From Eledone cirrhosa (lineage: Eukaryota): a stretch of DNA of 64,000 bases. The stretch is from NCBI GenBank assembly GCA_964016885.1, contig OZ024745.1, forward strand, positions 27,590,001-27,654,000. The letters run 5' to 3'. The notes under the pieces are model-generated. The model had not been told where the DNA came from. It saw nothing but the letters and a program-made list of their open reading frames with translations, and did no database searches. This document shows, piece after piece, positions 4,083 through 59,558 of the stretch (position 1 is its first letter; every line of letters starts with the position of its first letter). Made by a program: the position numbers and the translations under genes.

Positions 4083-4140
4083 TATTCAGACAGTCTGCTT
4101 CTAGCGAACTATTTACATTATTTTGCCTTCATCAGGGAAT
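4083..4140 (-). ncRNA. Degenerate type I hammerhead ribozyme
   Basis: Minus strand: attcc CTGATGA aggc...gcta GAAG cagactg TC tgaat. GAAA is changed to GAAG. Adjacent to (TA)n. Confidence 0.5.
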
Positions 4141-4437
4141 CCCTGTGATTCTGTGTACAGCAGAATATTGTTATAGCAACGTCATATATATCATACTGAC
4201 TACAGAAAATACCTGAAACGATCTGACTAATTCCTATAAAATACATACGTTTGGTGAGGTACTTAAATGAGTAATACATATCTATACTAGAACATATCAT
4301 ATATGATTTGAAGATGTTAAGGGAGACAAAAGATAGATATAGCACAAGAATCGAAATTAATAGAAAGTCTCGGTGTCAGCTGATGATTAACAGTAATGAT
4401 TGGATGCATACAAACTTCCTGGCTAGTATATTGGCAT

Positions 4438-4545
4438 TTGTGAAGGCACATGGCTTAACAGGTAGAAGAGCTGGGTTACAATGAAGTTGTGAGTTCGAAT
4501 TCTAGGTCGGGCGATGCGTTATGTCCTTGAGCAAGATATTTTATT
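4438..4545 (+). mobile_element. tRNA-derived SINE head (second family)
   Basis: ttgtgaaggcacatggctta...gagttcgaat...gcgttatgtccttgagcaaga, homologous to 36601-36720. Confidence 0.65.
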
Positions 4546-5519
4546 TTATATTTTATTTTATTTATAACATCTGCTAGGAGATGTTTCCGGTAGATAGTAT
4601 TAGCAACTGGAAATATCAATGGGAACATTGTTTCCTTGGTTTGATCTGATGAGTATCACCTCACTCGGGCAGCGTATGAAATCTGAGAACTTATCGATAT
4701 TGGCCTCAATTATGATGTTAAAAAATACGTTCTGCTGTTGTGGACGGCTGAGTGCACCGTCTATCGGGATCCACCTGATGGAATGTCCATTCAATTATTT
4801 ATTTCCTTACCCCCAAATCTATAAACTGTTCTAAATTATGAACTGTATTGTTAAGTTAAGGTCCAGTAAATTAATTCGTTTCTTCAATTTCACGGATTTC
4901 TTTTAGAGCTTTTGTTATCGACAGAAATCCATTGTGGAATTATGTATGAAATGACATTGATAACGTGTTTTTGTTTGTCAATAGATCTTCGCTGTCATCT
5001 TCAAGTGAATATTGTTCAATTGAGTGGCATTTCCTTTTGCTTTTGAAAAACGTTTAAGAAATTGTGTTATAACGCTTGACACATAAAATCTTATTGTTAA
5101 GGAATTGGTTCTTATTTTAACTCTTAACATCCTGCAATTATTTAGCAGGAAATATCTAGAAACGGGTTTGTTAATTCAGTTATTCATTGTATCTTTTCCA
5201 GTGAACGGATCATTGTGAAAATTTGAAGTAAATTAAAGAAAATAATTTAATTCTCAATGCGACGCATTTATAGTGCTGTTATGTAATTTTGATCTTGAAA
5301 AATAAAAAGCAGCACTATAACTGCATCGCATTAAAAATTAAAGTCTTTACTTTAATTTACTTACTAATGTGGTTTCATGCGATATTGGGCGTTAAAAGTT
5401 AATTTCATGATGGTAGCTACATTACGAGAATACAAGTCCGCAACGTGGTGGAATTCAAATCCATATTTATATCTAAAACAATCAATTATTATAATATATG
5501 TAAAGGTTTTGCTACATGA

Positions 5520-55413: not shown

Positions 55414-55592
55414 AATTGTTTCTACTTTTGGCACAAGGTCAGAAATTACCCAGTACATTACTGGTACTTTATTTTATCGACCCCGTAAGGATGAAAGACA
55501 AAGTTAGCCTCGGCGGGATTTGAATTTAGGTCGTAAAGGGACGTAACTATGCTGGACAGCATGTCCGATCCTCTACCGATACTGCCAATTCA
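55414..55592 (-). mobile_element. tRNA-derived SINE
   Basis: Reverse complement of a near-complete copy. Confidence 0.8.
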
Positions 55593-57362
55593 CCGTGTGC
55601 GTGTGTGTATGTGTATGATGGAAGTTTGTCTATATAAAATGTTCAGCAATGGTTCCTAAATATTGGTCTTCCAAATTTATTAAATCAACAGAGATCACAA
55701 TTCGCTTGACTGGGTTTTTCCGAACTGCTAAACAGCGAGTCGTAGTGTATAACGCAATAATTGACACCTTTGGACAAAACCTGTCGTCACCTCCTGGGAT
55801 ATTGCACCCCTACCCAATATTGCAATGTCCATTACAATGAATAAATTTGATCTAGCAATAATGTCGCCTGGAGAGATAGTGCTGTTCCCAAGGACGGAAA
55901 AGATGTAATCAAACTTCCTCCACGAAAAGGAACTGGTATGAGGATAAAGTGTGGTAAACATAGAAGCATTGCAATATTGTTAGCTTAGGTTAATGTTCTG
56001 AATAAATCCCTTGTGAATGGTGGCCTTTCTGAATATCAGTTAGAAAGGTAGGGAGAGGGCGAGGTAAATAGAAAGAGAGAGTAGGAGGAAGAAAGAAAGG
56101 CGAGAGAAAAAAGAGAGGGAAAGAAAGAAAGAGAGTGGGGAGGGAAGGAGAGAGTGACAATGTAATGAGAGGTTACATACCCCAAGCTGCGATTTCTTTA
56201 TATCAGTAGAGTATCAGCGGTTTTTACCTCGGGATTTATTGACACTGTAAACGAATGCATATAAATTTATTCAGAACGAATACAAATATATGCTACCCCA
56301 GTACTTTTGTTACGTAATGCGCTTTGCCAGTGAATCTTTTTTTATGCCAGTAAACAGAAGCTGAGCATGTCGTTCATCGCATATTTCATAATGTGGCTGT
56401 TGAGCATACAGTAGACATACTTCGTAGATCGGAAGAAGTAGACAGACACTCCTAACAAGCTTGCATAGATATGCGAAACTAATCAATGTTGTTATTCACA
56501 GATTTGCAGAGAGAGAGAGAGAGAGAGAGAGAGAGAGATACAGAGAGAGAGAGATACAGAGAGAGAGAGAGAAAGAGAGAGAGAGAGAGAGAGAGGGGGG
56601 AGAGAGAGATAGATAGATAGAGAGAGATAGAGAGAGAGAGAGAGAGTCATGATGTTTAATAACCGTAAATTCGCATTGGGTTTCTATATAATATTGGAGA
56701 GATTTTTTGTGATTGTCAAGAATTCTGCACCACAATTACTTTCCGCCATCTCTTAAAACATATTATACATTAGTGCTGCGTAAACGAGTTATAAGCTTAT
56801 AGCCATGTAATGTCTACTCGATTCGTCACTCCAATGGAGCATGATAACTTTACTTGAGTCGTTTATAATTTCGAATTAATTATTGTCTTTAGATGAGAAC
56901 TGTTTTGTACAGAAGATTCCTTATGTCGAGTGCATTTTAAACAAAATCACTAATTCTTATCACCAGAACTCTACTGGATAGATTCGCAAAGTCATTTTAA
57001 CTGATAATTCTGCCGTGTTCGGCTTTGTAGATATTGTTCATGTAAGATTTTGTCCCCATTGTTAATATTTAATCTGAAATATTGTATGTAATATATATAC
57101 TGATTGTATAGGGTTTCGTATGGAAACAAGTTAAGTAAAACAGGCGAAACACTAATAATTTGTATAGAGGTATTAAATTTTCCTGTCAATGTTTGAACAT
57201 GACACAGAAATATGTATATTCACGAAACTTTGTCTTCGGGTTCAAAGTAGGCGTTCTATCTCTTTCTTTTCGTGTATTTCTTGAACTAACATTCGATTAT
57301 TAGAGCAGTATATATATATATATATATATATATATATATATATATATATATATATATATATA

Positions 57363-59558
57363 TTAGTTTTGCTAGGTTTTTGATATGAAACCGTGTGTCG
57401 AAACAAATATTGTTATACTTGGGGAGGGTCATATTTGTGTAATATTGCCAGAATTAATAACAGAACACACTCACTGTTTCGTTGGTTTTCGCTTTTCGCT
57501 TCTGTGTCTTTTATATCGGTAATCTAATTTATTCGGTCCTCAATGTTGCCATTGACTGACCAACGGTAAAAAATAATACAGATACAATATAGACACAAAC
57601 ACATATATATAGTTTATCAAAGTTCTTTCGTTGCACATCTGCAACATCGTCAGTGGTGCTATTGTTTCCTCCCGTTGCATTGTATTTTCTACGCCATCTT
57701 TATTTAGTCTGTTTATATATTTATTTATTAGTTTATTTTATTTTGTCTTTTTTGCGCATGCGTTTGCGTGTGTGTATAGTGTTTTGTTTGATGTGTGTTC
57801 GTGATTGGGTGACTGTGTATTGGTTAATGTATTCTATCTTTACTAGTGTGTGTTTATATGCGTTTGTTGTTATTGTGCTTGTGTATGTATTTATTTATTT
57901 ATTTATCTATTTATTTATTTATACTTCTCTTAGGTCAGTGTTGTTTGTTTGGGTGTTGTTGTTATTCCATTCATTCTTTCTGTTTAGCCTTGGCCTTCTA
58001 AGTTCTATTTCACTGGCCTCTCTGATTTGCCTATCTGCTGGATCATTTCTATGTTTAGATATTATTCTAATTTCTATGTTGTCTATGTTACCGTCGTGTT
58101 GTTGTCTGGCATGTTCGTATAGTACTGAACCGTTTTTTCGTCCTTTTAGTTCCCCCCCCCCAGTGTTGGTCTATCCTCTCACTTATGCTACGAGCTGTCT
58201 CGTCTATGTATGTTGTTGTCATTGTTCTGCAAGTACCCTCTGTACATCTTATGCTATAGACTACGTTTCTAGTTTTACAGTTTATCCGGGGTTTACCTTA
58301 CATATGATACATTTCCTATTAGTACAGTGGGTTTTCTTAAAAGGGTAGGTTTTGCTGATCAGGGATTTTATGGTGGTTCCTGGCTTTTCTACCACCTTAA
58401 TCTTTAAGTGGGTCTTTCTCAGGGCCTTTCTACACTGGTTAGCTAATTTTCCTCCAGGGGTAGCGTCCACAAACATGACACTCTGGTATCTCTGGTTGTC
58501 GTACCATGAGGTGGCTTTCCATATTTTATGTCTAGCCCTATCTAAGCTATTCCATGGCTCCTTCGTATACTCTGACTCTGTCTCTTTGGTTGTAGCCAGA
58601 GAACTGCATGCGGTTGATGAAGTGTTGGATGTGTCTTTCCATTTCTGTTGGGTCGCACATGCGGGACACATTCTTGATCACTCGTACCAAATCTGCGATA
58701 AGAATATTAAACTTAGCGCTACTGGACATTGCTGAGTTTTTGAGTATCAGGTATTTGGAGGCCATGGGTTTAGCATAGTGTGAGTGGAGAATTTGGGCTC
58801 TCTCGTCTATAGTGTTAATCCAGACTTCCGTGTCTAATACAGGTAGTCTATTGTTAGGGTGTTTGGAAGGGTAGTCGATAGTTACAGTTATACTCTGGTG
58901 TATGGAATTAGCTATCTGCTGGATGCTTTCCATTGTGCTACGTTCTAAATCAAACTTGTTAGTGCTCTCTAGTGGGGATGTTCTTATAACTATATTGATA
59001 TCGTCTACGTAACGAGAGTACATGAGAGTACATAAGAGAAGTATAAATAAATAAATAGATAAATAAATAAATAAATACATACACAAGCACAATAACAACA
59101 AACACATATAAACACACACTAGTAAAGATAGAATACATTAACCAATACACAGTCACCCAATCACGAACACACATCAAACAAAACACTATACACACACGCA
59201 AACGCATGCGCAATAAAGACAAAATAAAATAAACTAATAAATAAATATATAAACAGACTAAATAAAGATGGCGTAGAAAATACAATGCAACGGGAGGAAA
59301 CAATAGCACCACTGACGATGTTGCAGATGTGGAACGAAAGAACTTTGATAAACTATATATATGTGTTTGTGTCTATATTGTATCTGTATTATTTTTTACC
59401 GTTGGTCAGTCAATGGCAACATTGAGGACCGAATAAATTAGATTACCGATACAAAAGACACAGAAGCGAAAAGCGAAAACCAACGAAACAGTGAGTGTGT
59501 TCTGTTATTAATTCTGGCAATATTACACAAATATGACCCTCCCTAAGTATAACAATAT
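57363..59558 (-). mobile_element. Penelope-like element, 5'-truncated, with a 526-bp inverted terminal repeat
   Basis: Minus strand YSRYVDDI, LPVLD, HYAKPMAS and FVDATPGG, then a frameshifted GIY-YIG (VVYSIRC...YIDETARS..ER..QH...RQIREA...LNRKNEW). Arms 57407-57932 and 59033-59558. (TA)n on both sides. Confidence 0.9.
57609..57662 (-). ncRNA. Hammerhead in the PLE terminal repeat (mirror copy at 59303-59356, plus)
   Basis: atag-cac-ca CTGACGA t-gttgca-gatg-tgcaac GAAA gaac TT tg-ataaa-ctat. Stems I and III are weak. Confidence 0.6.

Follow-up and report, generated by a model that had tools for sequence, protein, structure and literature searches.

Hammerhead ribozyme motifs at the 3' ends of Penelope-like elements and in retrozyme-like units of Eledone cirrhosa: predicted abundance and insertion at (TA)n tracts

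Hammerhead ribozymes (HHRs) in Penelope-like elements (PLEs), the targeting of (TA)n tracts by PLEs of the Hydra clade, including one Octopus family, HHRs with a U3-A8 core and retrozymes have all been described before. Hydra-clade elements are recognized by a CxCX5C linker and by CxxC and CxH motifs that flank E and N, and an inverted 5'-truncated arm with a tail at one end only is the insertion architecture of PLEs (PMC8557442). The U3-A8 core, which could have been taken for a new variant, is already published, with about 1,300 copies reported in Schistosoma mansoni (PMC4209133). Two standing questions are the role of the hammerhead in PLEs and the identity of the system that mobilizes animal retrozymes. 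The genome of Eledone cirrhosa bears on both, as illustrated by a stretch of 64,000 nucleotides (assembly GCA_964016885.1, contig OZ024745.1, positions 27,590,001 to 27,654,000), further called the window, to which all coordinates below refer. The HHR motifs in this DNA are, in our view, very probably type I folds at the 3' ends of PLEs that were 5'-truncated and often inverted when inserted at (TA)n, with a minority residing in tandem non-coding units; the latter likely borrow PLE enzymes.

A first-pass annotation of the window had listed 18 HHR sites, 11 of them as full folds and seven as decayed or half motifs. Under a strict descriptor for type I folds (CUGANGA, stem II of at least 3 bp, GAAA, stem III of at least 1 bp, NUH, stem I of at least 4 bp) six motifs were found, with cores at 7608+, 46697-, 47319-, 47774+, 49357- and 52803+, all of them among the 11 claimed full folds. 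The mean in 200 local dinucleotide shuffles was 0.07, and none of the shuffles reached six. The same holds for an arbitrary sample of 79 stretches of 10 kb (789 kb of the 2,996-Mb assembly), in which 68 canonical motifs occur, whereas five shuffles gave 0–1 and the reversed sequence gave none. Thus, real type I HHRs are present, at a density far above that of shuffled DNA in window and sample alike. Chance matches in AT-rich, repeat-rich DNA could be envisaged since the motif is short and degenerate and Rfam finds none, and the variant classes in the sample (three U3-A8, four C3-A8 and no U3-G8 motifs) indeed stay near shuffle level (1–3, 0–2 and 0–4, respectively). For the canonical class, however, a chance origin is refuted by the shuffle controls, by the thousands of copies per family and by the covariation discussed below, and as a general explanation chance can practically be set aside. 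At its gathering score, Rfam reports no hammerhead in the window or in six HHR-bearing loci, its window match being a U6 RNA only, and no hammerhead is present among the 150 of 277 matches listed in an E-value scan of the window. The earlier suspicion that this hammerhead set is probably uncatalogued thus agrees with what Rfam misses.

The stems of the motifs also covary. In a structure-blind alignment of 65 rows of the C1 group (families are introduced below), 91.9% of the stem cells are paired, with 58 double-sided changes, whereas partners that were slid out of register gave 35–56% pairing and 1–36 double-sided changes; these cells count related sequences, not events. Covariation is further seen between family B and a related tandem unit at locus L225, and in stem I of family A, where one pair is CG in 50 copies and AT in six.

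Masked self-BLAST and genome searches grouped the 18 sites into about 11 families (four sites in A and two each in B, D and F), with labels A to K that are our own. The idea that many HHR families coexist in this DNA therefore stands, but calling the sites unrelated was too strong. Every family searched genome-wide occurs at high copy number, and the best genome copies are 88–100% identical. First-look candidates numbered 1560 for A, 2974 for B, 2617 for F, 1160 for D, 1643 for E and 1803 for C1, next to 172 for C2, a count that covers the window's exact C2 subfamily only; families H, I, J and K are known from fetched loci only.

Five of the 11 proposed full folds fail in the copy present in the window. 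The one at 33855+ (core 33861), an older family A copy (33855–33904, + strand), carries U instead of C3 and satisfies the descriptor only if this U3.G8 combination is allowed. At 49054+ (core 49063) the window copy of C1 fails, while 40 of 65 distinct family relatives pass, and at 52051- (core 52095) A9 has mutated to U. In the D pair at 57609- and 59303+ the core, stem II, CUU and a stem III of 1 bp are all present. Stem I, however, is interrupted by a C.A mismatch in the family, and 0 of 19 distinct D copies satisfy the descriptor. D was at one stage regarded as a core only; this was dropped, as a related family, AGTCA, shows the same 1-bp stem III and CUU together with a perfect stem I. Among the seven sites described as decayed or half, 46850+ (core 46854; family K, 46818–47030, + strand) is in fact a minimal HHR that is complete and has U3-A8 in its core. 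The others are indeed cut, mutated, non-canonical in their core or devoid of GAAA. Site 10249+ (core 10253; 10181–10300, + strand) is a member of family H with G8 changed to A, of which intact members exist at loci L253 and L257; 32432+ and 45525+ correspond to the 3' half of F, a family with the whole fold in its long copies; and at 51865+ (core 51876) an inversion junction cuts just 5' of the core, by which the 5' strand of stem I was lost. Site 53470+ (core 53474) belongs to family J, an inverted pair (52988–53259, - strand; 53449–53720, + strand) with a hammerhead-like scaffold and the non-canonical core CAGUUGA, found in six of seven distinct copies. Finally, 4083- (core 4135; 4085–4143, - strand) is a CUGAUGA without GAAA beside (TA)n, which has no match among 263 fetched loci. 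The full type I arrangement of core and stems is lacking in D, J, 4083, 52051, 10249 and the half sites.

The connection with PLEs, which the first-pass annotation had also proposed, is most direct for family C2. Its HHR (core 49357) lies in a 3' untranslated region (UTR; 49265–50325, - strand) with a tail-less end at (TA)n, behind a 5'-truncated open reading frame (ORF; 50326–51705, - strand) that encodes a reverse transcriptase (RT) with YRDDG, a CxCX5C linker and a GIY-YIG-type endonuclease, while CxxC and CxH occur in the next frame. A short inverted piece of C2 tail (51690–51736, + strand), recognized by comparison with long C2 copies, closes the insertion at (TA)n. The linker features diagnostic of the Hydra clade are found in this ORF and at loci L068 and L066, the third Cys being changed in L066, and so is the combination of a 3' HHR with insertion at (TA)n. 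By eye the RT resembles the Hydra-1_Obim protein; the DKT region was not recovered in the sequences studied here, and Pfam did not recognize the Hydra ORFs. This resemblance, a 52% match to an O. bimaculoides protein and the likeness of a repeat mentioned below to octopus repeats fit DNA of an octopod.

In long copies of C2, C1, F, D and AGTCA, the HHR is located 0.4–1.5 kb downstream of PLE coding sequence on the same strand. Such upstream coding sequence accompanies 20 of 53 hits for F, 13 of 30 for D, 13 of 32 for an AGTCA probe, 8 of 40 for C2, 4 of 76 for C1 and 2 of 83 for A, against 0 of 28 for B and 0 of 12 for I; loci that overlap are counted among these hits, as are some neighbours by chance. 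A co-linear order of ORF, UTR, HHR and (TA)n is present at L066 (F), L134 (C1), L067 (A), L070 (D) and, for C2, in the window. The F hammerhead lies about 1 kb behind the Hydra ORF at L066 and also elsewhere, the C1 hammerhead at L134 comes after a Hydra endonuclease and has a UTR that recurs at L135, and family A follows a Hydra endonuclease at L067 with a microsatellite-rich UTR in between, and at L067 and L132 abuts, inverted, the same family of Hydra ORFs. For D and its relative AGTCA, the PLE found 400–520 nt upstream is a different one, having YVDD and a CX4CxxC linker; by linker motif and domain order it would be of the Neptune/Nematis type, and homologues are mostly unnamed. Thus, C1, C2, F and D are the 3' ends of protein-coding PLEs, and A probably is as well. 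C1, C2 and F can be assigned to the Hydra clade on the basis of these motifs, as can, with more reserve, A. At least two PLE lineages are present, as had been anticipated.

The other members of these families in the window can be understood along the same lines. A family A 3' end that is truncated at its HHR (7603–7731, + strand; core 7608) is flanked by (TA)n on both sides and is 85% identical to 52798–52923. The latter segment belongs to a tailed A arm (52554–52930, + strand), with its HHR core at 52803 followed by (TA)n, that probably is a Hydra PLE's 3' end, the UTR being long and rich in microsatellites; its inverted tail-less partner (52036–52552, - strand), the copy with the mutated A9, ends about 20 nt past the predicted cleavage site. 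The C1 3' end (48948–49240, + strand) starts with a palindromic inversion junction (48948–49040) and ends at (TA)n. Family F is represented by a 3' half with its tail (32429–32565, + strand), comprising GAAA, stem III, GUC and the 3' strand of stem I of a Hydra PLE 3' end, and by an inverted pair (45385–45575) with a tailed arm on the - strand and a tail-less arm (45525–45575) on the + strand. For D, the 3' UTR (57407–57935, - strand; HHR-like core 57653, weak stem I) is in sense with a broken, 5'-truncated ORF (57990–59137, the lower bound being approximate, - strand) that has YVDD, a CX4CxxC linker and, at its C-terminus, a GIY-YIG endonuclease, putatively of the Neptune/Nematis type. The inverted D arm (59030–59558, + strand; core 59312) is 99% complementary to the other arm.

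The window is AT-rich and full of (TA)n, and a (TA)5 lies within 300 nt downstream of all 19 window sites that were measured. In the arbitrary sample this applies to 60 of 68 motifs, as compared to 25% of random positions, whereas the upstream figure is 33 of 68; the proposed association with (TA)n is therefore well founded. Outward-facing pairs of A, F, C1 and C2 consist in 61 of 66 cases of one long and one short arm: the long arm keeps a tail of 65–95 nt, and the short arm stops at an internal TAT-like site, 10–50 nt past the predicted cleavage site. Most inserted copies retain sequence on both sides of that site.

These features can be combined in the following scheme. The GIY-YIG endonuclease would nick (TA)n, after which the RT would prime at the RNA 3' end (target-primed reverse transcription) and usually stop early, so that the 3' HHR is the part most often copied. 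A second priming event at an internal TAT site may then produce the inverted arm. Given that most copies extend across the cleavage site, the template would be RNA that is either uncleaved or re-ligated. From the weak palindromic stem III found in most PLE motifs, cleavage is predicted to be slow and to depend on dimers. For the retrozyme-like families B and I, the RNA would be transcribed, would cleave itself into monomers and be circularized, and the circles could be copied in more-than-unit lengths by the RT of a TA-targeting PLE.

Some further observations on the (TA)n tracts may be added. At 48852–51736, elements of different families are stacked tail to tail in the same tracts, with C1 and C2 sharing 49240–49264, suggesting that every insertion, once made, offers a following one its target. 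The tails of A (52863–52930) and F (32495–32565) have a common motif, CTCT...GTATTGAGTAC, though their hammerheads differ, and this motif is a candidate recognition signal for the RT of Hydra elements. At 16141–17496, a tandem repeat of 495 nt, together with an inverted arm of 99% identity, is flanked by (TA)n in an architecture as in PLE insertions; it has a CUGAUGA with no GAAA within 45 nt, and is possibly another non-autonomous PLE partner.

That retrozyme-like parasites are present was stated by the first-pass annotation, and this is correct for a minority of the families: B and I behave as non-coding retrozymes, and perhaps E too. Family B, a unit of 319 nt, occurs in a head-to-tail array with this period at L142, and several copies exceed one unit, as does the arm at 47571–47948 (+ strand) in the window, with core 47774 and a long extended stem I, which faces an inverted arm at 47145–47522 (- strand; core 47319). 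Family I repeats with a period of 528 nt (three units at L201) or 521 nt (L061), and is represented in the window by an inverted fragment at 51775–52013 (+ strand). The L225 array contains four units of 310 nt that are 67% identical to B, with the stem sequences exchanged around a conserved core. All three units lack an ORF, the longest stop-free stretch being 52–77 amino acids, and their circular folds have z scores of -4.1 to -6.4. Adjoining inverted arms are present in 5 of 15 B loci and 3 of 6 I loci. Family E, with its minimal HHR at 46560–46780 (- strand; core 46697, palindromic CAUG stem III), is a short non-coding unit that at L105 seems to be repeated with a TA/TG microsatellite spacer inside the period, and which may there be a retrozyme containing a microsatellite.

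It could be argued from these units, as was done in the first-pass annotation, that most of the motifs are non-autonomous ribozyme parasites using PLE helpers, the more so because 30 of the 68 motifs in the sample occur as solo copies, no ORF being in view, and because an ORF partner is lacking for E, H, J and K. Solo copies are, however, what 5' truncation is expected to yield. The most abundant families (C1, C2, AGTCA/D and F) run on into PLE ORFs, and only 9 of the 68 sampled motifs are tandem, distributed over three loci, with two of the nine being C2 copies; of the remainder, 19 are inverted and 10 have an ORF upstream. The character of a tandem, ORF-less non-coding unit is likewise not found in A, C1, C2, D and F, long copies of which run into PLE ORFs, the evidence being weakest for A. 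We thus consider it improbable that retrozymes account for most of the motifs: C2, C1, F and D, and probably A as well, belong to the PLEs themselves as their 3' ends.

A more serious alternative, though still a rather unlikely one, is that the folds are largely non-catalytic relics or protein-binding handles and that PLE spread needs no cleavage. Family F was amplified with A8 in all 46 distinct copies, and position 3 is U in 34 of these and C in eight, the latter giving a C3.A8 mismatch; among the first 100 F pattern matches listed, C3 occurs in about 31. D copies that are 99% identical share a broken stem I, J has its CAGUUGA core, and inserted copies retain both sides of the cleavage site. 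Furthermore, in vitro cleavage by the minimal HHRs of PLEs was reported to be weak (PMC4209133), and 8 of 9 dimers from Xenopus were reported not to cleave (bioRxiv 10.64898/2026.07.22.740005). On the other hand, the core nucleotides are fixed while N7 varies (N7 conservation in F is 0.37), U3-A8 is a compensatory pair, and stems covary between subfamilies, which fits selection on a catalytic fold in most lineages. In view of the amplified families with C3.A8, broken-stem or CAGUUGA motifs, cleavage may be partly dispensable.

Several points weigh against the explanation in terms of type I HHRs at PLE 3' ends with a minority of retrozyme-like units. In B, C2 and E, which are young, double-sided changes are almost absent. 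Minimum free energy folds are clearly better than those of shuffles for B (z -4.4) and F (z -2.0) only, and for the A, C1 and D motifs they do not give the full three-stem junction, as is expected of weak minimal motifs. The link of A to an ORF consists of one co-linear locus, with nine TA tracts and a Tc1/mariner-like insertion in between, and two inverted junctions; D was assigned to its clade by linker motif and domain order rather than by tree placement; and E, H, J and K have no established PLE partner. Homology between retrozymes and the pseudo-long terminal repeats (pLTRs) of PLEs was looked for and not found, as B, I and the L225 unit have no similarity to the nine family ends tested, which lends no support to a pLTR origin. 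The explanation as a whole is built on sequence and predicted folds, cleavage and expression being predictions.

The scale of the phenomenon was estimated in two ways. The 68 motifs of the arbitrary sample, which fall in about 20 sequence clusters, correspond to 86 per Mb (bootstrap 56–120). Exact matches to patterns spanning the 5' half of the motif number 45,895 for the C1 group, 17,519 for C2, 19,312 for AGTCA and 4,936 for F in the whole genome, with 0 for the reversed patterns. The three canonical patterns (C1 group, C2 and AGTCA) together have 82,726 matches, and since 38 of their 41 matches in the sample satisfy the full descriptor, the floor is about 75,000 complete predicted motifs. 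The raw extrapolation of the sample, about 2.6×10^5, had to be lowered, as the four patterns match 44 times within the 0.789 Mb sampled and 87,662 times within the full 2,996 Mb, which makes the sample 1.9 times richer than the genome. Calibration through the 38/68 share yields a total of about 1.3×10^5, with 0.8–2.6×10^5 as a plausible range, so that this genome likely contains more than 100,000 predicted ribozymes. At 94 per Mb, the window has a density between an ordinary one and roughly double the genome mean; a view of the window as a hotspot was abandoned, as 79 arbitrary stretches hold 68 motifs.

Published counts are much lower for several animals: 235 in the giant squid by covariance models (PMC6962438), about 5,000 in a mussel, over 6,000 in Acropora and about 9,000 minimal motifs in Xenopus (PMC4209133). 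The axolotl has 126,247 hammerheads (PMC7229834) in 28.2 Gb (bioRxiv 10.64898/2026.07.22.740005), a number that the calibrated total equals in one tenth of the DNA, a comparison that is indicative as the descriptors differ. With the same proviso on descriptors, the density appears to be several times above any published value that we found. A literature search yielded no cephalopod retrozymes or HHR load of this scale, in a corpus that leaves subscription journals mostly outside and to which preprint supplements may add species. The main text of a recent Octopus repeat annotation (PMC13282606) contains neither "ribozyme" nor "hammerhead". Given this and the motifs missed by Rfam, the ribozyme content of cephalopods is probably far undercounted. 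Tentatively, and with more doubt than confidence, we suggest that E. cirrhosa carries the densest load of self-cleaving ribozyme motifs of any animal described (10^5 or more, one per 12–25 kb), resulting from a massive radiation of Hydra-clade PLEs, and that its retrozymes bear a PLE insertion signature, i.e. a TA target, an inverted truncated arm and more-than-unit length.

If this is true, the signature would directly document, at the genomic level, the copying of circular retrozyme RNA by PLE enzymes, and sister subfamilies with U3-A8, C3.A8 or broken-stem cores would form a natural experiment on the need for cleavage in PLE retrotransposition. With tens of thousands of young copies, matched subfamilies with intact, compensated and mismatched cores, and retrozymes that seem to have been inserted by PLEs, both standing questions become testable. 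Sense-strand intronic motifs, if there are any, could affect host transcripts.

The window also contains other repeats. A U6 snRNA copy (36497–36600, + strand; 90.6 bits) with a 3-nt deletion in the ACAGAGA region, located immediately behind a (TA)n tract and ahead of a tRNA-like head of a short interspersed element (SINE), is likely a retrocopy. PIF1 helicase fragments (PF05970, PF21530) at 38849–40408 (- strand) probably represent a decayed Helitron. RT and zf-RVT fragments, putatively L1/Tx1-like, and the C-terminus of a second ORF of a long interspersed element occupy 91–2015 (+ strand) and 2367–3062 (- strand). A tRNA-derived SINE is present in many copies (3121–3315, 15568–15753, 20012–20202, 44436–44620, 55415–55594 and others) and presumably resembles octopus SINEs, and a perfect (ATAAAA)25 array occupies 48594–48743.

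Among the systems described, the minimal HHRs of PMC4209133 are alike in being type I with a short palindromic stem III and an extra base after A9, and in the occurrence of many families per genome, close opposite-strand pairs and the U3-A8 variant. They number 2,000–9,000 per genome, and C3.A8 or CAGUUGA families were not found in the part of that paper considered here. As compared to metazoan non-LTR retrozymes (PMC7229834; bioRxiv 10.64898/2026.07.22.740005), B and the L225 unit are similar in length (310–319 nt), GC content (35–39%), tandem arrangement, lack of an ORF, strong self-pairing and type I HHR. Unit I (521–528 nt) exceeds the 170–400-nt range given in PMC7229834 but is within the range of 51–972 in the bioRxiv study. 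The B and I copies differ in carrying PLE-type inverted arms, and are known here from genomic DNA alone. The D ORF has in common with Neptune/Nematis PLEs a C-terminal endonuclease with a CX2-5CxxC linker and inverted pLTR arms; stem I is weak in D, and AGTCA, its relative, has an intact one. With Hydra-1_Obim and its clade (PMC8557442) the Hydra elements found here share the C-terminal GIY-YIG endonuclease, CxCX5C linker, CxxC/CxH motifs, YRDDG RT, 3' type I HHR, (TA)n targets and inverted 5'-truncated arms. The HHR sequences are unlike the one listed for Hydra-1_Obim, the UTRs measure about 1–1.5 kb, and the tails are 65–95 nt instead of the published 30–40. Whereas the published clade comprises few families, with four co-terminal copies of Hydra-1_Obim in Octopus bimaculoides, E. 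cirrhosa harbours several Hydra families with thousands to tens of thousands of 3' ends.

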